A DNA stretch of 64,000 nt from an uncultured Chloroflexia bacterium (GTDB lineage Bacteria > Chloroflexota > Limnocylindria > Limnocylindrales > CSP1-4), in NCBI GenBank assembly GCA_963791725.1, contig CAWBTQ010000006.1:111519-175518 (forward strand). Direction: 5' to 3'. Position 1 is the first letter of the stretch, and each line of letters begins with the position of its first letter. The notes beneath the pieces are model-generated. The model saw only the letters and a list, made by a program, of their open reading frames with translations. It was not told the DNA's origin and did not search any database. This document shows positions 47,775 to 62,712 of this stretch, piece after piece. A program made the translations under genes and the position numbers.

Positions 47775-48959
47775 CTACCGAGAGTTCAGCTTTGGGACGT
47801 CCATTTCGGCCGGGCCCACGTAGCGGGCATCGGGCCGGATCAGCTTGTCGGCCGACGCCTGCTCGATGGCGTGAGCGCTCCAGCCGGCCATTCGCGCCAG
47901 AGCGAACGTCGGCGGGAAGAGGTCCGGCGGAAGACCGACACCCTGCAGGACCGCGGCCGCGTAGTACTCGACGTTGGTCTTGATTACGCGGTCGGGCTTG
48001 AGCTCGCCAAAGACCCGCAGCACGACGTCCTCGACCTTGACCGCGGTGTCGAGCCAGTCGGCCATGTCCGCCATGCCCTCGGCCACCTTCCGCAGAGCGG
48101 CAGCCCGCGGGTCATAGGCTCGGTACACACGATGGCCGAAGCCCATGATCCGGTCGCCGCGGGCGATGGCCTCCCGAACCCATTTCTCCGCGCGATCCGG
48201 TGAGCCGATCTCATGGAGCTGGCTGACCACTTCGGCCGGGGCGCCGCCGTGCAGCGGGCCCTTGAGCGCGCCGATTGCCCCGCAGATGGCGCTGGCCAGG
48301 TCGGACCGGGTCGAGATGATCACCCGGCAGGTGAACGTGGAGGCGTTGAGGCCATGCTCGGCGCCAACGATGAAATACGCGTCGAGGGCGCGGGCGGCGG
48401 CCGGGTCCGGGTCCGCACCGGTCAGCTGCTGCAGGAAGCCGCCCGCAAGAGAGAGCTTGGTGTTGGGTTTGACCGGCTCGAGGCCGTTGCGGAGGCGGTG
48501 GAAGGCTGCCAGGGCGGATGGGGCGAAAGCGGTGAGCTCGCGCGCCTGGTCGACGGTCGGCGGCCAGTGCGGCCGGCGCCACGCACCCCAGACGGAAACC
48601 GCCGTTCGAAGCGCGTCCATCGGATGGGTGTGGCTCGGCAGTTCATAGAGCGCGCACATCACAGGCTCGGGTATCTCGCCCGGGGCCAGCGTCGCGCTCT
48701 TCCGCCACTCGCCCGTCCACAGGAGCTCCGCCACGCGGCCGTAAGTCCCCTTCTCGACGAGCTGCCCGATCGGGTAGCCGCGGTAGAGCAAGCGGCCGTT
48801 GGCGCCGTCGACCATTCCGATGGCGGTCTCGGCGGCAATCACCCCCGCGAGGCCGGGAGAGTAGGCGCGCTCGACAGGGGCCTTCTGCTCTGCGGGGACG
48901 GCTGCCTCGGGCGTCTGCGACTTCGCGGACGCGGCGTCGTCTGTGTTGCTGGTCGTCAT
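47775..48959 (-). CDS. Citrate (or 2-methylcitrate) synthase, CitA-type
   Basis: YSPGLAGV, LLYRGY, AEHGLNASTF, GPLHGGA, MGFGHRVYRAYDPRA, TNVEYY. Confidence 0.93.
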   Translation of the reverse strand: MTTSNTDDAASAKSQTPEAAVPAEQKAPVERAYSPGLAGVIAAETAIGMVDGANGRLLYRGYPIGQLVEKGTYGRVAELLWTGEWRKSATLAPGEIPEPVMCALYELPSHTHPMDALRTAVSVWGAWRRPHWPPTVDQARELTAFAPSALAAFHRLRNGLEPVKPNTKLSLAGGFLQQLTGADPDPAAARALDAYFIVGAEHGLNASTFTCRVIISTRSDLASAICGAIGALKGPLHGGAPAEVVSQLHEIGSPDRAEKWVREAIARGDRIMGFGHRVYRAYDPRAAALRKVAEGMADMADWLDTAVKVEDVVLRVFGELKPDRVIKTNVEYYAAAVLQGVGLPPDLFPPTFALARMAGWSAHAIEQASADKLIRPDARYVGPAEMDVPKLNSR

Positions 48960-49108: not shown

Positions 49109-49127
49109 GGTAGGGGGCTGCCCTACC
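49109..49127. promoter_or_regulatory. Perfect inverted repeat GGTAGGG-N5-CCCTACC, candidate operator
   Basis: Lies 150 bp upstream of the citrate synthase start; related sites occur at 52987 and 53012. Confidence 0.5.
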
Positions 49128-49890: not shown

Positions 49891-50489
49891 CGGAGCTTGT
49901 CCCTTTCTGTGTCGCGCGCGGCGCCAGACACGGTCGCCGCGGGTGGTTTGTCGATATCCGCGGAGGCGAGCAGCTCGAAGCCGCGGACGACGGTCGCTCG
50001 TTCCTCGGGTGACAGTGTCGCCATTACCTGGGCGATCAGATCCGGCGCCAGAACCTGGCCGACCCTGGCCACGACGCTGCGCCCGGAGTCGGTCAACCAG
50101 ACGAGCACGCGACGTTCGTCGCGCTCGTCACGGATTCTGGCGACCAGACCCTTCGCCTCGAGACGTTGGAGCAGCTCCGAAACGGAGTTGCGCCGCAGCC
50201 CGAGATGCGCCGCTTGTTCGCCGACGGTCAGTGGCCCGCTCGCCGAGAGGTGCTGCAGCACCTCCAGCGCGCGGCGGGTGACCGGCAGCTCGCCGCCCTG
50301 GACTCGATTGGCCCAGTGGTAGCGCCGGTAAACCTCCGGGAAGAGACGAGCGACGCGTTTGGCTGCCCCGGCGGCAGTGATGTCGGCCGCTGGCGTGGAG
50401 TCGACGGCGCCGGCTGCCTCGGCCGCAGCCTGCCGGTCGGACCCGTCGGTTCGCTCCGGTTCTTGCGGGATTCCAGTCGTGACGATCAT
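49887..50489 (-). CDS. MarR family transcriptional regulator
   Basis: LTVGEQAAHLGLRRNSVSELLQRLEAKGLVAR.RDERDERRVLVWLTDSG. Confidence 0.92.
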   Translation of the reverse strand: MIVTTGIPQEPERTDGSDRQAAAEAAGAVDSTPAADITAAGAAKRVARLFPEVYRRYHWANRVQGGELPVTRRALEVLQHLSASGPLTVGEQAAHLGLRRNSVSELLQRLEAKGLVARIRDERDERRVLVWLTDSGRSVVARVGQVLAPDLIAQVMATLSPEERATVVRGFELLASADIDKPPAATVSGAARDTERDKLR

Positions 50490-50546
50490 GTCGCCACGAA
50501 TATCCGGGTGCGCGGGCTCGCCGTCAACGGATCCGATCGGTCGCTA

Positions 50547-50560
50547 CGACATATCTGTCG
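50547..50560. promoter_or_regulatory. Palindrome CGACA-TATC-TGTCG, candidate MarR operator
   Basis: Lies ~60 bp upstream of the MarR start, inside a wider GGATCCGA/TCGGATCC inverted repeat. Confidence 0.4.
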
Positions 50561-50801
50561 GATCCGGGCGACGCCGAAGAGCCGGGCGCCGCCGTGGTCT
50601 ACCGATCGCGCGACCAGGGCGATGCCCCACGAGGTCCGCAGCCACACCCGAAGGAGTCCGTCTACTCCCGAAAGCTTCGTGCCGCAGCACAGGACAGGCA
50701 ATTCGCTCCACGTCCATGCACGCCGCTTCGGCGCATAGTGCTCCCCGAATGAGTGGGCCGAGCCGAGAAACAATGTCGGCGACCCGTTCCCGAGGCCCGT
50801 T

Positions 50802-52220
50802 ATGTATCGCCGTCGCTGGTTCGCTGTCGTCGCCTCTGTCCTGATCGTCGGGACCGTCGAAGTCTTGAGTGACACCGTCTTCGATGCCGTCCTGCCCTTC
50901 CCATTCCACACCCTGCTCGTGGTCGCGGTCGTCACCCTCGTGGTGGCCACCGGGGCTACGTTCTCTTTCCGCCGCATCGATCGCCTGGCGGGCGACCTGC
51001 GCGAGCGGAATGAGGTCCTCCAGTCGCGCAACGCCGTCCTGCGCGCGGTCTACGACGTGAGCCTCGCCGTCTCGGGTCAGGCGGACCCCGAGCAAACGAT
51101 CGCCACAATCGTCGACCACGCTCGCTCGCTCCTCAATGTCGACGCCGCCCTGCTCGTCCTCGACGGTCCGGTCGGGGAGCTCAAGCTGCGGGCGGCGAGC
51201 GCCAGGCCCGGCGTCCTTGTCGGCGACGAACCTCACGCTGTCATGGCGCAGGAAGAGTCCGAGCTCGAGTGCTATCTGCAATCGGGATACAAGATCGCGC
51301 TCTCGGCTCCCGTCGGCCACGGCCCGAAGCGCGTCGGCATCCTGGCTCTGGCGACCCCGACCAGGGCCCGGCGCCGATTCGACGTTTCGGAGGTGGAGAC
51401 GCTTTCCGGACTGGCGACCCAGATCGGCCTGGCGCTCGAGGCGTCCAGGCTCCACGGTGAGTTGCGGGTCCTGGCGATACAGGCCGAGCGTGAGCGCATA
51501 GCTCGCGAGATGCACGACGGCCTGGCTCAGGTTCTCGGCTACGTCAACACCAAGTCTCAGGCCGTCGAGGAGCTACTCGCCGAGGACCGTGTGACCGACG
51601 CGCGGCGGCAGCTGGCCGAGCTTGCGGCCGCGGCTCGCTCGGTGTACGTGGACGTTCGAGAGGCGATCCTGAGCCTCTCGACGCCGGTGCCATCGGAGCG
51701 GGGAGTGGTCGCGGCTCTCGAGGAGTACGCGGCCGAGTACGCCGAATCGTCCAAGCTCGCGGTCAAGTTCGGCGCCAGTGCCGGTGCCGTGGAGGCTCAG
51801 CTGCCGGCGGCGGTCCAGGCGGAGATCTTCAGCATCGCCCGTGAGGCCCTGACAAACGTTCGCAAGCACGCCCGCGCCCAGCGTGTGAGCGTGAGCGTGG
51901 CCATCGAGGACGGCGAGTTGGCGCTGCGCATCGAGGACGACGGCGTCGGCTTCGAGGCGGAGCTGCTCGCTACCGGACCGGAGCGGTGGCCGCACTTCGG
52001 CCTGGCAGGGATGCGCGAGCGGGCCGAGTCCGTCGGTGGGCGGATCGCCTGGCGCAGCCATCCCGGTGCGGGGACCCTTGTCGAGCTGCATGTTCCGGTA
52101 GGGAACGGCCCGTTGACTTACCCACTCAATAGAGTTGCTTCGGGAGATGAGACCGCGCATCCTGAAGCGCAGCATCAGGCGGTCCGATCGCCCGCTGCGG
52201 TCGCATCGGAGGCAGACTGA
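50802..52220 (+). CDS. GAF-containing sensor histidine kinase (HisKA_3, NarX-like)
   Basis: Two N-terminal TMs, GAF-like region, ERERIAREMHDGLAQ, EALTNVRKHARA, IEDDGVGF, FGLAGMRERA. Confidence 0.95.
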   Translation: MYRRRWFAVVASVLIVGTVEVLSDTVFDAVLPFPFHTLLVVAVVTLVVATGATFSFRRIDRLAGDLRERNEVLQSRNAVLRAVYDVSLAVSGQADPEQTIATIVDHARSLLNVDAALLVLDGPVGELKLRAASARPGVLVGDEPHAVMAQEESELECYLQSGYKIALSAPVGHGPKRVGILALATPTRARRRFDVSEVETLSGLATQIGLALEASRLHGELRVLAIQAERERIAREMHDGLAQVLGYVNTKSQAVEELLAEDRVTDARRQLAELAAAARSVYVDVREAILSLSTPVPSERGVVAALEEYAAEYAESSKLAVKFGASAGAVEAQLPAAVQAEIFSIAREALTNVRKHARAQRVSVSVAIEDGELALRIEDDGVGFEAELLATGPERWPHFGLAGMRERAESVGGRIAWRSHPGAGTLVELHVPVGNGPLTYPLNRVASGDETAHPEAQHQAVRSPAAVASEAD

Positions 52221-52224
52221 CGCC

Positions 52225-52920
52225 ATGAGAACTGTGCTCGTCGACGACCATGCGCTCTTCCGCGACGGGGTCGCATCGCTACTGCTGGCGTGGGGCCATG
52301 AGGTAGTCGGTCAGGCTGCCGACGGTGCCGCAGCGGTGGAAATCGTGGATGAAACCTCACCGGACGTCGTGCTCATGGACGTTCGCATGCCAAACGTGTC
52401 GGGCCTGGAGGCCACGGCCAGGATCAAGGAGCGCCATCCCGAGGTCGCCATCGTCATGCTGACGGTGAGTGAGGATGAGGCCGACCTCTTCCGCGCGATC
52501 AAGGCCGGCGCCCAGGGCTACCTGCTCAAGAACCTGGAAGCGCCACAGTTGCGATCGATGCTCGAAGGAGTAGCCCGCGGCGAGCCTGCGATCACTCCGG
52601 CCACTGCGGCGCGGATCATCGACGAGTTCCTCAGGACGCCCGGCGGAACGCCCCAGCCGAACCAGCGCCTGACCGATCGCGAACTCGAGGTTCTGCAGCT
52701 CGTGACGGCCGGCCAGCGCAACCGCGAGATCGCGGTCGAGCTCGGCATCAGCGAGAACACCGTCAAGTTCCATCTCAAGAACATCGTCGAGAAGCTCCAC
52801 GCCCAGAACCGGGCCGAGCTCGCCGCTCGGGCGGTACGTGAGGGGCTCGTGCCCGACCTTCCGCGCGACGGGTCCGCCCACGACCGGCCCCGCCAGGACC
52901 TGTCGTATCGCCGCCGCTGA
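52225..52920 (+). CDS. NarL/LuxR family response regulator
   Basis: VLVDDHALFRDG, VVLMDVRMP, GAQGYLLK, LTDRELEVLQL...NREIA.ELGISENTVKFH. Confidence 0.96.
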   Translation: MRTVLVDDHALFRDGVASLLLAWGHEVVGQAADGAAAVEIVDETSPDVVLMDVRMPNVSGLEATARIKERHPEVAIVMLTVSEDEADLFRAIKAGAQGYLLKNLEAPQLRSMLEGVARGEPAITPATAARIIDEFLRTPGGTPQPNQRLTDRELEVLQLVTAGQRNREIAVELGISENTVKFHLKNIVEKLHAQNRAELAARAVREGLVPDLPRDGSAHDRPRQDLSYRRR

Positions 52921-52986
52921 TTCCCGCTGCGGGGACTGAGGTCGGTTCCGCGCGTTGCCGGCCCGGTCGCCGCGTCCCGGGTAAGG

Positions 52987-53030
52987 GGTAGCTGGTTGGC
53001 CCACCTCGCAGGGTAGGGCAACTCCTTCCC
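52987..53030. promoter_or_regulatory. Two degenerate GGTAGGG-N5-CCCTACC-like sites, candidate response regulator operator
   Basis: GGTAGCT-ggttg-GCCCACC (52987-53005) and GGTAGGG-caact-CCTTCCC (53012-53030), 70-115 bp upstream of the ATG at 53101. Confidence 0.45.
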
Positions 53031-53100
53031 TCCGGCAGTGTACGAAGGAGCCCTCGGGCGCCATTCTCAGGCCCAGCATATTCGCAGGCCGAGGCGTTCT

Positions 53101-55113
53101 ATGGGCTACCGGATCCAGATCGAAAACGATGGCTGTCTGAACTGCGGCGTCTGCATGGACGTCTGCCCGGTCCAGGCCCTCGACATGAGCCGACCGCAAC
53201 GGCCCGGGGTAGAAGGAGCCGGTGTCTTCGGCAAGCCCTTCGACTGGATGATGGAGTACCCGGTCCAGGTTGGGGAATGCATCGGCTGCGGCATTTGCGT
53301 CCGCGAGTGCCCGACCCACGTCGTCCTCCTCGACAGCCTGCCCGGGTTGACGCCGCTCGCCGCCCGCCAGGGCCCGATCAACCGACCCGCGGAGCCGGCG
53401 CCCGCCTGGCAGCCGCTCGGCGAGGTCACCAGCGAATCGCTCAAGCCGGCTCGTGTCTCGCCGTGGGGCCGCCTCTTCCAGTGGAACGTCAGCGAGCGGC
53501 CCGAGGACTGGCAGGTCTGGCGGTCCATGGTGACCGACTCTCGCGTGGATCCCATAGCGCCCTGCCAGGAGGCCTGCCCCGCCGGAACGGACGCCGGTCG
53601 CTACGTCGGCCTGATCGGCCAGGGCCGCTATGACGAAGCCTATGCCGTCGCCGCCGAAGTCAACCCGTTTCCCTCGGTCTGCGGCTGGATCTGTACCGCT
53701 CCGTGTGAAACGGCCTGCCGCCGTGGCACGCTCGACGAACCGATCTCCATCCGGCGGCTGAAGCGATTCGCCGCCGAGCAAGGCAAGCTGCCGCCCGTCG
53801 CTCCCCCCACGAAGAGGCTGGGCAAGAAGGTCGCGATCGTTGGCGGCGGACCGGCCGGCATGTCGGCCGCGTACTACCTGGCCAGGCTCGGGTACACCGT
53901 CACCGTCTTCGAGGCGATGCCGGTGCCGGGCGGCATGATGGCCATCGGCATCCCCGAATACCGCCTGCCTCGAAACGTCATCCGCGAAGAGATCGACAGG
54001 ATCGTCGGCCTCGGAGTCGAGCTCAAGCTCGACAGCGCCATGGGCCGCGACTTCACCCTGGCCGACCTGGAGTCAAAATTCGACGCCATCTTCCTGGCCA
54101 CGGGCGCTTCCCGCAGCCGCAAGCTGGGCGTCCCGGGCGACGGCCTTGTTGGCGTCGTCCCCGCGACCTTGTTCCTCAAGCAGGTCAACCTCGGCGAGAA
54201 GCCCGTGATCAAGGGTGCGGTCGTCGTTGTCGGCGGCGGCAGCACGGCGATGGACGCGGCTCGATCGGCCCTTCGATCCGGCGCGTCGTCGGTGACGATC
54301 CTCTATCGCCGCGGCCGGGCCGAGATGCCCGCCCAATCCGAGGAGGTCGAGGCCGCCGAGCACGAAGGCATCAAGATCCTGTTCGAGGCTGCCGTGACGG
54401 AAGTCAAGGGCGGCGACAGGGGCGTGACCTCGGTCACGTACATAAGCCAGCGACCGACCGGCAAGTTCGAAGGCGGCCGCGCCGTCTACGAGCCGATCCC
54501 GGGCAGCGATCGGGCGATCGACGCGTCGACTGTCATGGTGGCCGTCGGCGAGGAGCCGGACCCATCCATCCTGCCCCCCGGCGCCGGCATCGAGACGAGC
54601 GGGTTCTCGGGGATCGTGGCGGATTCGGGCCTGGCCACCGGACGCAAGGGCGTCTTCGCCGGAGGCGACGTGGTTTCTGGCGCCAAGACGATCATCCATG
54701 CCGTCGGCGCGGGTCGCCGAGCCGCCGGTTCGATCCACGAGTACCTGTCCGGCAGCAAGAACGGCGAGGCCGAGATCATGGCTACCGTCCGGGTGCCCAA
54801 GGCTCCCGAGCCGGTCCTGACCGTCGACCTGGCCGTGCGGCCGCGTGTCGGCATGGAGTTGCCGGCCTACACGCCGGGCTCCTTCGCGGCCACGCAGCCG
54901 AGCCTGGAGCCGGCCGCGGCGAGGGCGGAAGCGTCGCGCTGCTTCCGGTGCGATGCCGTGTACCGCTGCGAGACCGCGCACGTCCAGTCGGGGCGCGGGC
55001 CGAGGGACGGCCCAGATGCCAGGTCCAACGAACCAGCGCCGGCGCTCGGTGGCCGGCCCAATCTCGCCGGCTCGGCGAGCACTCCGCCGTCGATCCCAGG
55101 AGGTCGCGACTGA
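53101..55113 (+). CDS. Fe-S flavoprotein: N-terminal 2x[4Fe-4S] ferredoxin fused to a GltD/NfnB-like FAD/NAD(P)H oxidoreductase
   Basis: [91 protein letters not shown]. Confidence 0.92.
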   Translation: MGYRIQIENDGCLNCGVCMDVCPVQALDMSRPQRPGVEGAGVFGKPFDWMMEYPVQVGECIGCGICVRECPTHVVLLDSLPGLTPLAARQGPINRPAEPAPAWQPLGEVTSESLKPARVSPWGRLFQWNVSERPEDWQVWRSMVTDSRVDPIAPCQEACPAGTDAGRYVGLIGQGRYDEAYAVAAEVNPFPSVCGWICTAPCETACRRGTLDEPISIRRLKRFAAEQGKLPPVAPPTKRLGKKVAIVGGGPAGMSAAYYLARLGYTVTVFEAMPVPGGMMAIGIPEYRLPRNVIREEIDRIVGLGVELKLDSAMGRDFTLADLESKFDAIFLATGASRSRKLGVPGDGLVGVVPATLFLKQVNLGEKPVIKGAVVVVGGGSTAMDAARSALRSGASSVTILYRRGRAEMPAQSEEVEAAEHEGIKILFEAAVTEVKGGDRGVTSVTYISQRPTGKFEGGRAVYEPIPGSDRAIDASTVMVAVGEEPDPSILPPGAGIETSGFSGIVADSGLATGRKGVFAGGDVVSGAKTIIHAVGAGRRAAGSIHEYLSGSKNGEAEIMATVRVPKAPEPVLTVDLAVRPRVGMELPAYTPGSFAATQPSLEPAAARAEASRCFRCDAVYRCETAHVQSGRGPRDGPDARSNEPAPALGGRPNLAGSASTPPSIPGGRD

Positions 55114-55745
55114 TGGATTCCGCAGCATTCGGCGCAGCCGAGCAATTCGTCGAAGGGACGATTGCCGCCGCCCTTGTAGCTCTCTGGTTGCTGGCCGTGG
55201 CCCTGCACCTGGCCAGACCCTACATGCTCGCCCTGACGCGCAAGTTCACTCTCCGGCTCGGTGCCGACCTGTGGTGGACCATCTACGTCGGGATGCGCGA
55301 CATCTTCCTGCTCCAGGTCTTCCTGGGCAGCTTCATCTTCTTCTACCCCGACGTGGTGGGCGCCAACGATCTGCCGATCACCGGCGGCCTCGCAGGAGCA
55401 TGCGCTTTCGCGGCTCTGCTGCTCAAGCTGATGACGCGGGCCGACGCGGACGCGCGCAGCTTCAACGCCCAAACGTTCCTGATCGGGGCCGGTGCCACCC
55501 TGTACCTGGTGCCCTATCTCCTCGGCGTTCAGGTGACGACCGTCGGCAGCAGCATCTCGAACCAGCTGGCGTCGGTCCTGGTCAGTTCGCACAACCCCAC
55601 GCTGGCGCTGGCGCTGTGCTACCTGTCCGGCTTCCTCGTCGGGGTCATGGGTCTGGTGGCCGTCTTCTACAACCTCCGTCTTGCCGGGTCCGCACCGCGC
55701 AAGCCCGTTCCCGGCGCTGCCTCGCAGCCCGCGGCGCAGAGCTAG
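55113..55745 (+). CDS. Uncharacterised ~5-TM membrane protein (paralog A)
   Basis: ATG overlaps the flavoprotein stop; SD GGAGG; hydrophobic helices. Confidence 0.85.
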   Translation: MDSAAFGAAEQFVEGTIAAALVALWLLAVALHLARPYMLALTRKFTLRLGADLWWTIYVGMRDIFLLQVFLGSFIFFYPDVVGANDLPITGGLAGACAFAALLLKLMTRADADARSFNAQTFLIGAGATLYLVPYLLGVQVTTVGSSISNQLASVLVSSHNPTLALALCYLSGFLVGVMGLVAVFYNLRLAGSAPRKPVPGAASQPAAQS

Positions 55746-55754
55746 GAGATAACG

Positions 55755-56381
55755 ATGTCTGACCAGCAAGCTCTCGTTACGGGCTCGCAGTACTGGATGA
55801 TCCTCTCTATTGCGGCGATCCTGCCGATCCTGTGGGCCTTCACCCTGGCGCTCCACTTCGCCCGCCCCTATGTCATTCGCTATCTGCAGACGCTGACCTT
55901 GCGGTTCGGTGGCGACGTGTGGTGGCTGAGCTACGTCCTGATCCGCGATGGGCTGCTCGTGGTGACCTTTGCCCTGAGCGCGATCTTCCTCTTCCCCAAC
56001 GTCTACATGAGCGCCGACCTGGGCGTCCCGATCACGGCGCCGATAGCCGCCCTGGTCCTCTTCTGGGCCCTGCTCGCCAAGCTGACGGGTGACTCCGACG
56101 ACGACCCGCGCACGTTCCGCATCGTCTCGGTCCTGCTCGTCGTGGCGTCGGCGCTCTACATCGTTCCGCAGATCTACGGCGTCGAGGCCGGCGACCAGGT
56201 CGACTCGCTGAACTCGATCGCCAACCTGGGCGGCATCCCCGGAGCGCTGGTCAGCGGCTCGAACCCGAGCCTCTCGTACCCGATCCTGAACCTCAGCCTG
56301 CTTGGCTTCGCCGCCACGGGCGCGGTCATCTTCCTCTGGTTCATGAGCAAGACCAAGTTCGAGGCTGCCGAAATCGCGTAA
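55755..56381 (+). CDS. Uncharacterised ~5-TM membrane protein (paralog B)
   Basis: SD AGGAG; aligns by eye with paralog A over its full length. Confidence 0.85.
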   Translation: MSDQQALVTGSQYWMILSIAAILPILWAFTLALHFARPYVIRYLQTLTLRFGGDVWWLSYVLIRDGLLVVTFALSAIFLFPNVYMSADLGVPITAPIAALVLFWALLAKLTGDSDDDPRTFRIVSVLLVVASALYIVPQIYGVEAGDQVDSLNSIANLGGIPGALVSGSNPSLSYPILNLSLLGFAATGAVIFLWFMSKTKFEAAEIA

Positions 56382-56412
56382 CCGGCGATCCAGTCACTCG
56401 CCGCAAACGCAC

Positions 56413-56446
56413 AGGACCGCCGCTCTTCGGAGCGGCGGTCCTTCTG
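56413..56446. terminator. Intrinsic terminator with a C(UUCG)G loop
   Basis: aggaccgccgctc-ttcg-gagcggcggtcct followed by tctgatt, between convergent operons. Confidence 0.88.
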
Positions 56447-56473
56447 ATTCCGAGGGCGGGAGTGGACGACCTG

Positions 56474-57364
56474 TCAGCGCTGGCGATCGCGACCGGTGCC
56501 ACGGAGATTGGGCGGGATCGCGGCGGCGGCGGCCTCGTCCACGATCCAGATCGCGCCGGTTCGGCGGGTGCGCTGAACCGGCCAGCGGCGGTCGTCTCTG
56601 ACTTCTCCGAACACGTGACCGAGGGCCTCGGCCTTGGCCGCTCCGTTGGTAACGACCAGGACCGGTGCCGCTTCCAGCAGCCGCGGATTGACGGTCACGC
56701 GGGGCAAGTGCGGTCCGATATGCGCCGGCGCCGGTACGCCCATCGTCCAGGCCATGCTCTTGAGCGCCGGCGAATCCGGGAAGCACGACAGCACGTGGCC
56801 GTCGTTGCCCACGCCGACGAGGATCAGGTCGAAGGCAGGCCAATTGCCTTCGACGAGCGGCAGTTGAGCGGCCATCTCCTCCGCGTATCGTGCCGCACAC
56901 CAGTGGGTGTCGTGGTATTCGGCGATGGCGCGATCCGTCGGGAAGGGGTGGACGTTGGCCGACGGCACCGGGGCTCCGCCGGTCGATTCCGCGCCGCCCA
57001 GGAGAACGTCGTCGAAGGCGGCAACATTGGACTCGGGGTGGCCCCGGGGCACGAAGCGATCGTCGCCCCACCAGACGTGGACGTTCGCCCAGGGGATCAG
57101 ATCGACCAGGGGCGACTGCGACAGCAACCTGTAGATGGGTATCGGTGTATTGCCGCCCGTGGTACAGAAGTCGGCCCGACCGCGTCGGTCGACTGCCGCG
57201 ACGAGCACCGCCGAGATCCTCGCAGCCGCTTCTCGGGCCACGTCGTCCACGGTCGCCGCTACGACGAGCTCCGGCTCGCCCATGTTGGGGGCCGGCAGCG
57301 CGATCGCGGTCGTTCCGGACATCCCATTGGCTCCGGGGGCGAGGTCCGGCTCCTGCTCACTCAT
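56474..57364 (-). CDS. pgl: 6-phosphogluconolactonase
   Basis: TTGGNTP, VWWGDDRFVP..HPESN, FDLILVGVGNDGHVLSCFP, RVTVN. Follows opcA. Confidence 0.93.
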   Translation of the reverse strand: MSEQEPDLAPGANGMSGTTAIALPAPNMGEPELVVAATVDDVAREAAARISAVLVAAVDRRGRADFCTTGGNTPIPIYRLLSQSPLVDLIPWANVHVWWGDDRFVPRGHPESNVAAFDDVLLGGAESTGGAPVPSANVHPFPTDRAIAEYHDTHWCAARYAEEMAAQLPLVEGNWPAFDLILVGVGNDGHVLSCFPDSPALKSMAWTMGVPAPAHIGPHLPRVTVNPRLLEAAPVLVVTNGAAKAEALGHVFGEVRDDRRWPVQRTRRTGAIWIVDEAAAAAIPPNLRGTGRDRQR

Positions 57365-58728
57365 GGTCCTGGCTCCTGTACCGGGTGGGCGCGCTCGGCC
57401 CCCTGCTGGTCCTTGCCATGGTCCTCGATCGGGGCCGCGGCGTTCCTACGTGCCGGCCCGCCAGATCCGGCCTTATGCGAATTCGAATCTGCGCCCAGAA
57501 GTCGATGGGCCATGGCAAGTGCGTCCACCGCGACCGGATCGGCGGCCCCTTCCTCCACCGCACGCGCCAGAAGATCGACGTCTGAGAGGCGAGGCGCGGC
57601 ATAGTTGCGCCGGATCCGCTCGCGTCCGTCGTCCGACACCGACACGTCGACGTGACGATCGTCGGCCGCGACCCTGCCGATCAGTTCTGCGCCGCGCAAC
57701 CGTGAGGTTATCTCCACTCGGGCGGTGGAACCCGGTCCGAGATCCGAAGAGACGGACCGCAGCACGACCTCGACCGCGTGGTCCCGCTGACGGAGAGTGG
57801 CGAGCCGCCGCCCGCGCTCCGCCCGGCTCATCGGCGAGACGACGGTCATTCCAAGTCGCGACGCCAGCCAGGCCACGTGGTAGAGCGGGCGGACCACGTT
57901 CGTCGTCCAATCGGGGTCTCCCGGCGTGGCTGCGGCGTACTCCACTTCGATGCGGCGGACCGCCCCGAGATGCGGCCGCAGATCCGGCAGGTCGTACATC
58001 GATGCCAGGGCCTCGCGCCACCGGTACTGCCGCAGCAACGCCCAGTCCGCGACCACGAGTCTGCGCTCCTCGGCAACAACCGCCAGCCTGTCGAGCAAGT
58101 CGAGGCCGTCACCGGACCAGGCCGACCCGTCGACGATCAGCCGGTCGGCGATGGGCAGGAGGCGATCGGCCCGGTGGCTGCCGAACGGCGGGTCGTTCGG
58201 CCACCACATCGCGACGGGGAGATCGTGCACGAGCAGCGGCACGATGATCGAGGCCAGGTGGTTGCCGGTCTCGCCGCGGGCGGTGACGTAGATCGTTTCG
58301 GCCCCAGTCTCGGCTCGGCCGTCGGCTGTGGTCAACGACAGGGCCTCGATCTGAGCTTCGAGACCCGCCTCACCCTCGGGCTCATTCGCGGAGAGGATGA
58401 TCGACCGCGAGGCGTGGCGGCTAGCCGTCGCGGTGATGATCGCCGCGCACCGCCTGGCCGTGCTGCTGTCGCCGGCCAGCACGACCAGGTTCAGCACACT
58501 GGTGCGGGCCGCGACGTGGTGGGCGGCGGCATCGCTCGTCTCCCGAGCCGCGGCGAGCGCGGCTGCGGCGCGAGCCGCGGCCTCCGCCTGAGCGGCGACG
58601 AGCGCCGCCTCGGCCTTCGCCGCTTCGGCCCTGGCGACGGCGGCGTGGGCCCAGAGCTTGCCCAGCTGGCCCTCGATCTCCGAGACGGAGCGGGCCACGG
58701 GAGGTGAGGGTTTCAGATCCTTCGCCAC
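57361..58728 (-). CDS. opcA: Glucose-6-phosphate dehydrogenase assembly protein OpcA
   Basis: RTSVLNLVV, HASRSI, SIIVPLLVHDLPVAMWWP, RLIVDG, ADWALLRQYRWREALA. Confidence 0.9.
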   Translation of the reverse strand: MAKDLKPSPPVARSVSEIEGQLGKLWAHAAVARAEAAKAEAALVAAQAEAAARAAAALAAARETSDAAAHHVAARTSVLNLVVLAGDSSTARRCAAIITATASRHASRSIILSANEPEGEAGLEAQIEALSLTTADGRAETGAETIYVTARGETGNHLASIIVPLLVHDLPVAMWWPNDPPFGSHRADRLLPIADRLIVDGSAWSGDGLDLLDRLAVVAEERRLVVADWALLRQYRWREALASMYDLPDLRPHLGAVRRIEVEYAAATPGDPDWTTNVVRPLYHVAWLASRLGMTVVSPMSRAERGRRLATLRQRDHAVEVVLRSVSSDLGPGSTARVEITSRLRGAELIGRVAADDRHVDVSVSDDGRERIRRNYAAPRLSDVDLLARAVEEGAADPVAVDALAMAHRLLGADSNSHKAGSGGPARRNAAAPIEDHGKDQQGAERAHPVQEPGP

Positions 58729-60341
58729 CGTCTACCGTCCCGTTCCAAGAGCTCATCGGCCGACTCCGGCCCCCAGGAGCCGGCGGCGTAGTTGGGGAAA
58801 TGCGGCGCCTGCATCTCGGACCAGGCGTTGATGATCGGCGTGACCACGGCCCAGGCGGCCTCGACCTCGTCCGACCGGGTGAACAGCGAGGCGTCGCCAA
58901 GAAGCGAGTCGAGGATCAGCGTCTCGTAGGCATCCGGCGAATCAACGACGAACGAGGTGTCGTAGGCGAAGTCCATGTTGACGGTCCGGACGTCCAGTCC
59001 GAGTCCGGGCACCTTGGCGGCGAAGCGGAGCATGATCCCCTCGTCGGGCTGGATACGCATCGCCAGCACGTTCGGTGCCGGATCGCCGGTGGACTCGCGG
59101 AAGAGCCGCAGCGGCACCTCCTTGAACTGGATCGCGATCTCGGTCGCGCGCTTCGGAAGCCGCTTGCCCGCGCGGAGGTAGAAGGGGACGCCGCTCCAGC
59201 GCCAGTCGTCGATCTCGAACCGGCCGGCGACGTAGGTCTCGGTCTCGGACTCGGGGTCTACCTCGGGCTCCCCGCGGTAGCCGGAGGCCGGCTCGCCCTG
59301 GACCCAGCCGGGGCCGTATTGACCACGCACCACGTTTCGGCGGACATGCTCGGCGTCCGGGGCCGCGATCGCCCGGAGGACCTGAAGCTTCTGGTCGCGC
59401 AGCGCGTCGGCCTGGAACGACGACGGCGGCTCCATGGCGACGAGGGTCATCAGCTGCAGGAGGTGGTTCTGGAGGATGTCGCGGCTGGCGCCGGTCTCCT
59501 CGTAGAACGAGCCTCGATTTTCCACGCCGATCGATTCGGCAACGGTGATCTGGACGTGGTCGACGAAGCTGCGATTCCAGACCGGCTCGAAGATGCCATT
59601 GCCGAACCGGAAGACGAGCAGGTTGCGGACGGTCTCCTTGCCCAGGTAATGGTCGATGCGATAGACCTGCGATTCGCGGAAGACCTTGTTCACCTCGTGG
59701 TTGAGGTGGCGGGCCGATTCCAGGTCGCGGCCGAACGGCTTCTCGACGATCACGCGCCGCCAGCCCGTCCCGCGGACCTCGTGGTCGAGCCCGACTCGGC
59801 CGATCTGGCGCACGATCTCGGTGACCTGCGAGGGCTGCGTGGCGAGATAGAAGAGCCGGTTGCCGGCCGTGCCGCATTTCGCGTCGAGCTCGTCGAGCGC
59901 CTCGACCAGCCGGTCGAACCCGGCGTCGTCCGAGAAGTCGAGCTGCTGGTACTTGATGCGCTTGGCCAGCTCGGCCCAGGCGGCTTCGTCGATCGGCTGG
60001 ACGCGGGAGTACTTGTCCAGCGAGGCCCGCAACTCCGCCGCGAACGCCTCGCTGGAGTACGGCCGGCGAGCGACCGCGACCAGGCTGAACTCGGCCGGCA
60101 GCAGATTGGTGCGCCACAGCTGGTAGATCGCCGGGACGACCTTGCGGTGGGCGAGGTCGCCCGTGGCGCCGAACAGGACGAAGGCGCATGGGTCCGGCAC
60201 CCGTTCCAGGCGGAGACCCTGTCGGAGGGGGTTCACGTCGACGTCGGACCGCGCGCGGCGGCGGGCGGCGGCGGCGGCTTCGCGGAGCTGCAGCGCCGTT
60301 CGGGCCGGCGGTCGCGGGCTCGGCGCTCGAGGAGGGCTCAT
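58713..60341 (-). CDS. zwf: Glucose-6-phosphate 1-dehydrogenase (start uncertain)
   Basis: VLFGATGDLAHRK, IVEKPFG, YRIDHYLGKE, DILQNHL, RWSGVPFYLRAGK, DAYETL, YAAGSWGP. Confidence 0.97.
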   Translation of the reverse strand: MSPPRAPSPRPPARTALQLREAAAAARRRARSDVDVNPLRQGLRLERVPDPCAFVLFGATGDLAHRKVVPAIYQLWRTNLLPAEFSLVAVARRPYSSEAFAAELRASLDKYSRVQPIDEAAWAELAKRIKYQQLDFSDDAGFDRLVEALDELDAKCGTAGNRLFYLATQPSQVTEIVRQIGRVGLDHEVRGTGWRRVIVEKPFGRDLESARHLNHEVNKVFRESQVYRIDHYLGKETVRNLLVFRFGNGIFEPVWNRSFVDHVQITVAESIGVENRGSFYEETGASRDILQNHLLQLMTLVAMEPPSSFQADALRDQKLQVLRAIAAPDAEHVRRNVVRGQYGPGWVQGEPASGYRGEPEVDPESETETYVAGRFEIDDWRWSGVPFYLRAGKRLPKRATEIAIQFKEVPLRLFRESTGDPAPNVLAMRIQPDEGIMLRFAAKVPGLGLDVRTVNMDFAYDTSFVVDSPDAYETLILDSLLGDASLFTRSDEVEAAWAVVTPIINAWSEMQAPHFPNYAAGSWGPESADELLERDGRRWRRI

Positions 60342-60393
60342 CGGGCTGCCGCTCCGAGGATCGTGCGCTTGTCGAAGCCCAGGTCCATCTGCG

Positions 60394-62167
60394 TCATCCC
60401 TCCGCGAGAGCGGCGGCCATGGCCCGACCGAGGACGGCAAGACCGGAGTCTGGGTCCTGCCCGAGATTCACTCGGAGGATCGGGAGCTTGTGGTCCTCGA
60501 TCGTCCGAGCGTCACCCAGGGACTGGGCGCCGATCAGCTGGCCGAAGGTATAGGCGCGTGCCGGGGATTCCGCGATCCTCCGGGTGCTCGGCCACGAGCT
60601 GCAGGAACCAGCCGATCGGGGCTCCGCCCTTGTGGAGCTGGCCGGTGGAATGCAGGAAACGCGGTCCGTAGCCCACCGTGGTGGCTCGATGGGTCCGGTC
60701 GCGCAGCTGGGTCCGGATCGCGGCCAGGGCGGCGTCGCGGGCCGGCGTCTGGGCGATGTATGCCTGGATCGAGGCGTAACCGTTCGGAGCGAGGTTCGCG
60801 AGGTGCGCCTTGATGGCCGCCGACAGGGCCACCTCGTCGGCGGCGCCGATCGCCGGCGAGGTATCCCCGGCCGCGCCTCCGCCCGACTCGAACTGGGCCA
60901 GAACGGCCCGGGTGTTGGTCTTTGCCTCCTCGACATTCGGCTGGTCGAACGGGTCGATGCCGAGGACGGCGCCGGCGAACGCGGTCGCGATCTCCCAGCG
61001 AACGAACTCCGCGCCGAGCTCGATCGTCGAGCCGACTTCGAGGCGGATGACGGGATGACCGGCGGCGGCCAGCTCCGCCAGGCGAGCGTCGACGTTCGTG
61101 CCGATCACCGGCTCCGGCCCGGCCGAGCCGGCCAGGGCGATGCGCACGAAGACCCGATCGTCGCCGTACGCGGGGAGAGTGCCCAGCGGCTCTCCGTCCA
61201 CCGGCACTACGCCGACGCCGCGCCCATCGGCAGAGCCGAGCGGCGCCTTGCCGGTGGACTCGGCGATGAGCTGCTCGACCCATGGCCCGAAGGCGGCCAG
61301 CTCACGGTCGATGACGAATGTCAGCTTGTCGCGCCCTTCGCGGGCGAAGACGCCCATCGCCAGGCCCAAGGCCAGACCGGGGTTGGCGGCCGGATCGGTG
61401 ACCGTGCACGCCTCGACCATCGCCCGAGCCTTTTCGAGGAGCGTGTCGAGTTCTACTCCGAGAAGCGCACCCGGAACAAGCCCCACGTAGGTCAAGGCGG
61501 AATAGCGGCCGCCCACGTCCGGCGGGTTCAGGAAGACCTCGCGCAGGCGGTCGTGGTGGGGGATCGACTTGAGGCTCTTGTCCGGGTCCGTGATTGCGGC
61601 CATGAAGTTGCCCGGCTCTGCCGGCCAGACGCCGGCGACCTCCTGAGCGGCTTCGATGCGGGCCCACTGGTAGGCCTGGAACGAGAGCGACTCGGCCGTG
61701 GTGCCGGACTTGGTCGAGACGATGAACAGCGTGGAGAGAGGATCCAGGTCGTCGAGGGTCGCACTGACTGCGGCCGGGTCCGTAGAGTCGAGGACGCGGA
61801 CCAGAATGCCGTCGTCGGACGAACCGAAGACGTGGGTCATGAGTGCAGGGGCGAGGCTGCTGCCGCCCATTCCGCCCAGGACGGCGGCCTTGAAACCCTC
61901 GGCCCGAAGCTCGCCCGCGAATGCCTTGAGCTCGGCCGTCTCGTCGGCGAAGTGGAACGGCGCCTCCAGCCAGCCAAGGCGCGTGGCTATCGCACGCTGG
62001 ACGACGTCTTCCTTGCTCCATACCGACGGGTCGCGCCGGCCGATCGCCCGCTCGGCCCAATCCTCGGTGACCGCACGGTCGCGCGCGGCGGCCAACGCCG
62101 CATCCAGCCTCGCGTCCTCGAGCGTGAGGTCCAGAGCGAGAGAACGGGCGGGAGTCGGTTCGGTCAT
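60394..62167 (-). CDS. pgi: Glucose-6-phosphate isomerase (Tal-Pgi C-terminal type; frameshift at ~60555)
   Basis: RLGWL, GMGGSSL, STKSGTTAE, VGGRYSAL, EQLIAESTGK, PFDQPNVEEAK, GPRFLHSTGQLHKGG. Confidence 0.9.
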
Positions 62168-62241
62168 TTGCGGAGGCCTCATGTTTGGCTGGAGCGTTGC
62201 GGCGGCCGGCTGAGCCCCGTGCGTTGGCCGGTCGTCATGGA

Positions 62242-62712
62242 CTAGCCGGCCCGCTCCATGCGGGCGGCTTCCTTCTCGATGGCGTTGATCTTGCCGACGC
62301 GCCGGACGTGGCGAGCGGCCCCGCTGAATCGTGCAGCAAGGAAACTCTCGGCGCACGAGACGGCCGTCTCCACGCCGATCACGCGGGCTCCCAGAGCCAG
62401 CACGTTCATGTCGTCATGCTCGACGCCCTGACCGGCGGAGTAGGTGTCGTGGCAGAGCCCGGCTCGTATCCCGGGCATCTTGGACGCGGCGATCGAGGCG
62501 CCCACGCCGCTGCCGCACACGAGTATGCCGCGCTCGGCCCGGCCTTCGAGGATCGCCAGGGCCAGGGCTCGAGCGTAGTCCGGGTAATCGTCCTGCGGGT
62601 CAGAACCGTCGCCACCGAGGTCGATCAGCTCGTGGCCCAACGGCCGGAGACGGTCGAGCAACTCGGCTTTGAGCTCGAATCCGGCGTGGTCTGCCGCCAA
62701 TGCGATCCTCAT
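62242..62712 (-). CDS. rpiB: Ribose-5-phosphate isomerase B
   Basis: [51 protein letters not shown]. Confidence 0.95.

Follow-up and report, generated by a model that had tools for sequence, protein, structure and literature searches.

Five consecutive plus-strand genes in the genome of a Limnocylindrales bacterium (Chloroflexota) from peat soil encode a histidine kinase (HK), a NarL-type response regulator (RR), an Fe-S flavoprotein and two membrane proteins, A and B, whose family is named M here. They lie in a stretch of 64,000 nucleotides (contig CAWBTQ010000006.1, positions 111,519 to 175,518; below, the window) with a GC content of about 68%, in which real genes were picked by codon-position GC. 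M is a small, well-defined family without a solved structural analogue, and its members adjoin one particular ferredoxin, which in this genome is fused to the N-terminus of the flavoprotein. Judging from the sequences, there is about an even chance that the operon encodes a three-subunit, membrane-docked oxidoreductase in which electrons from NADPH would travel via flavin adenine dinucleotide (FAD) and four clusters into a heterodimer of A and B, with a quinone as the probable next acceptor. The gene layout, domains, paralogous membrane pair, spacings and terminator given for this locus in a preliminary description, made from the letters alone, are all present in the sequence.

The surroundings of M genes were compared in loci from 80 species representatives (357 species encode a relative) and in 80 diverse metagenome loci, all scored with our own profiles. 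Distant M genes adjoin a stand-alone gene for a ferredoxin of 146-169 aa with two [4Fe-4S] clusters. This protein aligns with residues 1-150 of the flavoprotein, the C-terminal PWG[KR]..W tail included, and the family-specific ferredoxin is called Fd below, whether it is encoded alone or as part of the flavoprotein. The M-ferredoxin neighbourhood is obligate: an Fd module stands next to an M gene in 146 of the 147 loci that could be judged (20 further loci end too early), in bacteria and archaea with GC contents of 30-71%. Five gene orders were observed, namely M-Fd, which accounts for most loci (GC 30-70%), M-Fd-M, Fd-M-M, M-M-Fd and [Fd-flavoprotein]-M-M; the single-copy M-Fd cassette was found in Micrarchaeota and Marsarchaeota. 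The sole judgeable locus without a detectable Fd module (L062) is also without the regulator, has a partial flavoprotein match and may be a degraded copy. The membrane pair had been proposed earlier as the partner of the flavoprotein, and the direct adjacency of A/B relatives to the same ferredoxin module in all five orders bears this out. It does so in an amended form: the constant partner of M is the N-terminal ferredoxin module of the flavoprotein, whereas the GltD-like core is an addition seen in Chloroflexota-type loci. In Limnocylindria the five genes hold together even though the outer flanks are lost. A and B could still be merely co-transcribed with the flavoprotein and functionally unrelated to it, but we hold this to be highly improbable, given an adjacency that extends across bacteria and archaea, translationally coupled starts and a synteny that outlasts the loss of the flanks. 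A physical complex of the flavoprotein with A/B, by contrast, we regard as very probable.

No third partner of M-Fd is conserved apart from local regulators, and the neighbours are heterogeneous. At one archaeal-type locus, L125:7064-9803, M-Fd is immediately preceded on its own strand by the genes of a 2-oxoacid:ferredoxin oxidoreductase with two subunits (alpha 612 aa, beta 285 aa), a placement that fits the uptake of low-potential electrons by M-Fd. Elsewhere, the gene of a 1055-aa multihaem cytochrome c (MtrC-like, with PKD domains) ends 4 nt before M (L119:6755-9919), M and Fd are separated by a multicopper oxidase gene (L086:1748-2893), a Rieske/cytochrome b/Tat cluster is found near M-Fd (L085), and M is fused C-terminally to an extra transmembrane (TM) helix and a beta-propeller-like domain (L099:1442-3562). 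One locus labelled Candidatus Sulfotelmatobacter (Acidobacteriota; L051) bears a Limnocylindria-type operon at 61% identity; its matches to RR and HK (42% and 29% identity) are found downstream on the opposite strand, and the contig may have been mis-binned. Apparent fusions between partners were discarded. The flavoprotein-M proteins P0125, P0214, P0242 and P0249 are frameshifted translations and not natural fusions, and the "Fd-M fusion" of L133 is unreliable, with a contig frameshift inside the ferredoxin. Database proteins including P0121 are likewise frameshifted read-throughs of high-GC contigs that mimic flavoprotein-M or A-B fusions.

The flavoprotein matches three kinds of Pfam domain, Fer4 with 2x[4Fe-4S] (residues 1-90), Fer4_20 (residues 153-227; PF14691, 9.2e-17) and Pyr_redox_2 (residues 242-538; PF07992, 1.3e-38), and carries the FAD and NAD(P)H Rossmann motifs of a GltD/NfnB-type module. 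Residues 143-620 align end to end with PDB sequences at E-values from 7.5e-108 to 8e-41, the matches being 9n5u_A (7.5e-108), 9bov_A, 8oh5_C, 4ylf_B, 5jca_L, 2vdc_G and DPD 1gt8. The dinucleotide motif VVVVGGGSTAMDAA...YRRGR is conserved in the flavoprotein orthologs, as is the other Rossmann motif; we take YRRGR after the second Rossmann motif to be the NADPH-type signature of the GltD/NfnB-type family. Invariant in 86 orthologs are eight cysteines of the ferredoxin module, six of the Fer4_20 domain (C155, C159, C194, C198, C202, and C206) and a C-terminal CxxCx5C motif. The last of these lies inside the stretch that aligns with StnC/9bov-type proteins (query up to residue ~620) and probably completes the GltD-type cluster, since positions 1-29 of the Fer4_20 profile are missing from the match. 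Two [4Fe-4S] clusters in this N-terminal cluster domain would call for eight ligands, of which the domain itself supplies six invariant Cys; C614, C617 and C623 may provide the others. The cysteine inventory fits four [4Fe-4S] clusters plus FAD. The NAD(P)H linkage postulated in the preliminary description agrees with a core that is nearest to NfnA(Bfu), StnC, NfnB and GltD modules and keeps both dinucleotide motifs and the invariant cluster cysteines, and we consider NADPH the likely electron donor. The score against NCBIfam PRK12771 (NAD(P)-binding protein subfamily) was 473.1 bits, below the cut-off of 516. As first described, no GltB, NfnA, formate dehydrogenase (SfrA/FDH-like) or hydrogenase gene, nor a gene for a Bfu partner, occurs within ~7 kb on either side. 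Nor do NfnA/GltB/SfrA/Bfu-type partner genes occur in 80 related loci, in which HK, RR, A and B are the only constant neighbours.

The two membrane proteins are paralogs (41% identity, E 2e-31) with about five hydrophobic helices each. Neither matched a model in Pfam or NCBIfam, and when 33 diverse M members were compared with Pfam at E<=1, no family was common to more than 4 of them. A search with an A+B profile returned just 253 clusters (50% identity) among 1.84 billion representatives. The AlphaFold2 model of A has a pLDDT (predicted local distance difference test) of 94.2 and a pTM (predicted TM-score) of 0.87, and Foldseek found nothing in the PDB that resembled it better than E = 1, with TM-scores < 0.3. 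In the literature we found no description of a flavoprotein-A-B or M-ferredoxin system. With no family model, solved fold or paper to place them, the proteins remain, as they were first presented, without a known family, and the operon cannot be assigned to a named complex.

A member of the M family has a ~200-aa core of five TM helices whose N-terminus lies outside; its hallmarks are the ARPY, LRxGADxWW and RD motifs, the DxDxD loop and an NP ahead of TM5. A and B have every one of these motifs, next to their dedicated ferredoxin domain; in A, with five TM helices and an outside N-terminus, they read LH-LARPY..KFTLRLGADLWW..Y..RD. A Sec signal peptide stands at the start of several M homologs, ahead of an Ig-like or His/Asp/Glu(/Met)-rich domain, and one homolog ends in an extra TM helix and a beta-propeller; from these forms it follows that the M core is oriented N-out, C-in. 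Residues R35 and Y37 (ARPY), R48, D52 and W55 (LRxGADxWW), A51, R62 and D63 (start of TM2) and P79 are invariant or nearly so family-wide, and D113 and N161 are conserved as well in the distant M set. The cytoplasmic face and the inner third of TM2 contain most of the conserved residues, and the acidic DxDxD loop is found with them. Since the ferredoxin lacks a signal peptide it must be cytoplasmic, on the same side as the conserved charged and aromatic residues of M; its tail is basic and the M loop acidic. A bis-His haem between A and B was considered and rejected, as H32/H34 are invariant only within Limnocylindria and are replaced by Gln in many distant members.

In the M tree a deep split, with a support of 100, separates single-copy from two-copy forms. 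Within the two-copy clade the A-type (M1) and B-type (M2) proteins are sister groups, each of which contains M-Fd-M, Fd-M-M and flavoprotein-linked forms, and the pair therefore goes back to a single duplication. According to the tree this duplication is ancient and preceded both the rearrangements of gene order and the fusion in the flavoprotein; the two copies have always been retained, as would be expected for an obligate A/B heterodimer. As a proxy for the heterodimer, the TAG of A was read as Gln and the chain A-QEIT-B was modelled. The resulting model, an artificial device built on a shallow alignment, has a pTM of 0.72 with disorder confined to the linker, and its fold lends modest support to an A/B heterodimer. 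Foldseek found nothing in the PDB at E<=0.001 for this linked chain.

The kinase has two N-terminal TM helices and an outer loop of ~10 aa, followed by GAF, HisKA_3 and HATPase_c domains (Pfam), and the regulator consists of Response_reg (1.5e-29) and GerE (1.5e-21) domains. Both have the domains of the NarL/FixJ type, and in architecture the pair is like NarXL and DevSR. The HK core resembles NarQ, NarX and LiaS with scores far under their NCBIfam cut-offs, and the best NCBIfam models for RR, MadR and NarL, also scored below theirs; the cut-offs of the NarX, NarQ and NarL equivalogs were thus not reached. Among the 69 species-level relatives whose upstream sequence is long enough, 63 have HK and RR next to the operon, while five relatives keep the operon without a two-component system. 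The linkage persists in the group with 58-71% identity, where citrate synthase, MarR and pentose-phosphate genes no longer adjoin, and also in a low-GC organism (L004). A palindrome with the consensus C[CT]ACCC-N4-GGGTAG precedes the flavoprotein start by 92-103 nt. In 46 of 66 relatives >=10/12 positions agree with this consensus, as against ~1/66 expected from shuffles, and we infer that the regulator binds the palindrome. Its TACCC/GGGTA half-sites are like NarL heptamers, with a spacing that is 2 bp shorter than in the NarL 7-2-7 arrangement. The two-component control put forward in the preliminary description is consistent with both the retention of HK/RR and the fixed distance of this palindrome.

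Two other sites in the window are similar to the candidate operator. An operator-like CTGCCCGATCGGGTAG (11/12 positions) lies at 48762-48777, early in the coding sequence of citrate synthase, and could be a chance occurrence or a second site for the regulator. A perfect palindrome, GGTAGGG-GGCTG-CCCTACC, occurs at 49109-49127, ~150 nt upstream of the citrate synthase start; its half-sites resemble those of the operon's operator in reversed arrangement, and it was conserved within 2 mismatches in none of the 24 relatives that keep citrate synthase at this place. In four loci of one subclade (L129, L148, L154 and L166) a PadR-family gene of 102-103 aa lies directly upstream of M-Fd and forms a three-gene cassette with it. 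With its own HK/RR in one clade and PadR in another, the module therefore tends to have a regulator of its own, which suggests that it may be used conditionally. The features of the operon are listed in the table.

Table. Genes, domains and signals of the flavoprotein-A-B operon (window coordinates)
Feature	Position	Strand	Remarks
Histidine kinase (HK)	50802-52220	+	472 aa
NarL-type response regulator (RR)	52225-52920	+	231 aa
Candidate operator	53001-53016	.	Palindrome CCACCT-CGCA-GGGTAG, ~100 nt upstream of the flavoprotein ATG
Fe-S flavoprotein	53101-55113	+	670 aa; 180-nt gap after RR
Family-specific 2x[4Fe-4S] ferredoxin module	53101-53550	+	Residues 1-150; eight invariant Cys; PWG[RK]..W tail
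GltD/NfnB-type core	53548-54780	+	Fer4_20 cluster domain, FAD Rossmann fold, NADPH-type Rossmann fold (GGGSTAMD...YRRGR)
C-terminal CxxCx5C motif	54940-54969	+	C614, C617, C623; invariant in 86 orthologs
Membrane protein A	55113-55745	+	210 aa; clade M1 of the M-family tree
Membrane protein B	55755-56381	+	208 aa; 9-nt spacer after A; clade M2 of the M-family tree
Terminator hairpin	56413-56442	+	13-bp perfect stem, UUCG loop; common to convergent pgl

The ATG of A overlaps the TGA of the flavoprotein gene by one base, and the Shine-Dalgarno sequence of B (TAGGAGATAACGATG; window 55743-55757) is held in the spacer and takes in the TAG stop of A. A and B share one reading frame, and in the relatives where this is so the stop of A is mostly TAG. 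Both features recur because the TAG forms part of the ribosome-binding site of B, and no read-through is therefore needed. The terminator lies between convergent genes, the minus-strand pgl ending at 56474, and folds with -29.9 kcal/mol (z = -4.28; 0 of 200 shuffles as stable); it had been overlooked in a simple terminator scan because its U tract (UCUGAUU) is weak, and is clear on folding. An Rfam scan of 50000-57000 gave one match, at chance level. A look for transcripts of this stretch turned up metagenome DNA contigs and no RNA runs. Upstream of the five genes are those for MarR, a Transgly_assoc protein, citrate synthase and MFS, and downstream pgl-opcA-zwf-pgi (56474-62356, minus strand; pgi is a PGI-domain gene) converges on the operon. 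These four genes belong to the oxidative pentose phosphate pathway, a source of NADPH; this neighbourhood is kept only in relatives of 79-93% identity.

In the proposed oxidoreductase, NADPH would reduce the FAD of the GltD/NfnB-like core, and electrons would move from FAD to the two [4Fe-4S] clusters of the core and then to the pair in the ferredoxin module fused at the N-terminus, itself seated on the cytoplasmic face of the A/B heterodimer. An acceptor site at this face would be made up of R35, Y37, R48, D52, W55, R62/D63 and the acidic DxDxD loop, and electrons would leave A/B there for an acceptor in the membrane. Among possible acceptors a quinone would be the most likely and the most economical choice, although as an identification it is tentative and we give it clearly less than an even chance. 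The GAF kinase and the NarL-type regulator would turn the operon on through the palindrome.

Parts of this plan have counterparts in characterized systems. The core shares with the NfnA(Bfu), StnC, NfnB, GltD and DPD modules the NAD(P)H-FAD-2x[4Fe-4S] plan, the Rossmann motifs and cluster cysteines, six of them invariant within the Fer4_20 domain; unlike NfnAB, glutamate synthase, SfrAB and Stn, however, the flavoprotein described here has a dedicated ferredoxin module at its N-terminus, and the operon encodes two membrane proteins instead of the usual partner subunits. A cytoplasmic Fe-S protein seated on a small membrane subunit is also the arrangement of DsrMK, HdrED and NarGHI. Complex II-type enzymes with haem-free anchors, such as E. 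coli FrdABCD, combine a flavoprotein, an Fe-S chain and a small pair of related membrane subunits. Their quinone sites have conserved Arg, Asp, Tyr and Trp at the cytoplasmic interface, and residues of these types are found at the interface of A/B. A and B differ from complex II anchors in having five TM helices each and no haem ligand, and the donor would be NADPH rather than succinate or quinol; they do not group with SdhCD/FrdCD anchors, with no Pfam match at E<=1 among the 33 members and Foldseek TM-scores < 0.3. RnfA/RnfE and NqrD/NqrE are likewise two small paralogous membrane subunits that work with an Fe-S protein. RnfA and RnfE are inverted relative to each other, whereas A and B have one orientation; moreover, A and B give no Rnf-Nqr match in Pfam and lack conserved Cys that could bind an Fe-S centre within the membrane. 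The ferredoxin is similar to NuoI/TYKY-type proteins (FpoI, HycF and NdhI) in its 2x[4Fe-4S] plan with an insert between the Cys motifs, and NuoI is the top NCBIfam match for 3 of 4 stand-alone partners, matched as a single stretch. An assignment as NuoI (TIGR01971) was rejected at 34.9 bits for the module of the window and 35-45 for the stand-alone partners against a cut-off of 113, with generic ferredoxin models scoring about equally. It also differs from NuoI in its own basic PWG[KR]..W tail and has no NuoH or NuoB partner.

Several observations weigh against the oxidoreductase as proposed. No redox cofactor ligand and no Cys is conserved in M, and any acceptor site is therefore conjectural; the His of TM1 that A and B share is Gln in many homologs. 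By Foldseek against the PDB the M fold is similar to no quinone-reducing subunit, and the fused-chain A-B model is a workaround on a shallow alignment. In Micrarchaeota a Nuo-type complex has been proposed to accept the electrons of ferredoxin (PMC5864196), so that there is no obvious gap to fill there. Some homologs have extracellular additions or neighbours (Ig-like, His/Asp/Glu-rich, beta-propeller, multicopper oxidase or multihaem cytochrome), a hint that the acceptor may be extracellular and not in the membrane. Electrons might then be delivered or coupled beyond the cytoplasmic membrane, by a reductase of metals or extracytoplasmic proteins or by a redox-coupled ion/metal transporter, in which R62/D63 and the outer-face residues P79, P88-T90-G91 and N161-P162 would form a polar path. 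The conserved residues on both faces and the buried Arg-Asp pair would suit such a function, as would the homologs with a signal peptide and an Ig-like or His/Asp/Glu(/Met)-rich N-terminal domain, the M fused to a TM helix and a beta-propeller, and the multicopper oxidase and MtrC-like cytochrome genes at L086 and L119. These additions are sporadic, however, and missing from A and B here; a membrane domain without haem, Fe-S or Cys offers no evident way to carry electrons across ~30 angstroms, and the M model is like no known transporter. We consider an outside acceptor or a transporter unlikely.

The nearest solved relatives of the core, NfnB (4ylf_B and 5jca_L) and StnC/NfnA(Bfu) (8oh5_C and 9n5u_A), bifurcate electrons, and the flavoprotein has the additional invariant Cys motif at its C-terminus. 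Its flavin could thus send part of the NADPH electrons through A/B to a high-potential acceptor in the membrane and the rest to a soluble ferredoxin of low potential, or, in the reverse, confurcating direction, make NADPH from quinol and reduced ferredoxin. This is improbable in our view: no NfnA-like second flavin or [2Fe-2S] subunit is encoded nearby, archaeal M-Fd cassettes are without any flavoprotein, and GltD-like modules occur in non-bifurcating enzymes too (GltD and DPD). A signalling device is about as improbable, in which A/B and the Fe-S flavoprotein would serve as the redox-sensing accessory of an intramembrane-type histidine kinase and not as a metabolic enzyme. Kinases with almost no extracytoplasmic loop, such as this one, often depend on accessory membrane proteins, and the two-component system is tightly tied to the two-copy clade, the low-GC L004 included, with the PadR gene directly upstream instead in other lineages. 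The palindrome upstream of the flavoprotein gene is nevertheless what would be expected of a target operon, most single-copy M-Fd cassettes have no sensor nearby, the five relatives mentioned above keep the operon without a two-component system, and a 670-aa four-cluster enzyme would be a heavy investment for sensing. Compared with these alternatives, the membrane-docked NADPH oxidoreductase remains our preferred explanation.

The occurrence of an undescribed family beside one particular ferredoxin in both bacteria and archaea suggests an unstudied route of electrons into the membrane. In a wider and more speculative proposal, which we think unlikely, M and its dedicated ferredoxin would make up an unrecognised haem-free, cysteine-free membrane redox module of soil and peat Chloroflexota and of archaea (Micrarchaeota and Marsarchaeota). 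It would let low-potential electrons enter the membrane by a new way, coming from ferredoxin or, where the ferredoxin is fused to the flavoprotein, from NADPH. Such a module could conserve energy by means of the buried Arg-Asp pair. The system also provides structural work with a compact set of three proteins and a new membrane fold, with a regulator and its candidate operator to hand. In peat, permafrost and soil few Chloroflexota are more abundant than Limnocylindria. Homologs of B fall into 1577 clusters (90% identity); the best 120 are 84-94% identical to it and are named Candidatus Limnocylindrales, and such conservation implies a strong constraint on B. Were the module to reduce quinone, it would be an unlisted NADPH dehydrogenase in Limnocylindria and a link from ferredoxin to the membrane in small archaea, and metabolic reconstructions from such genomes would change.

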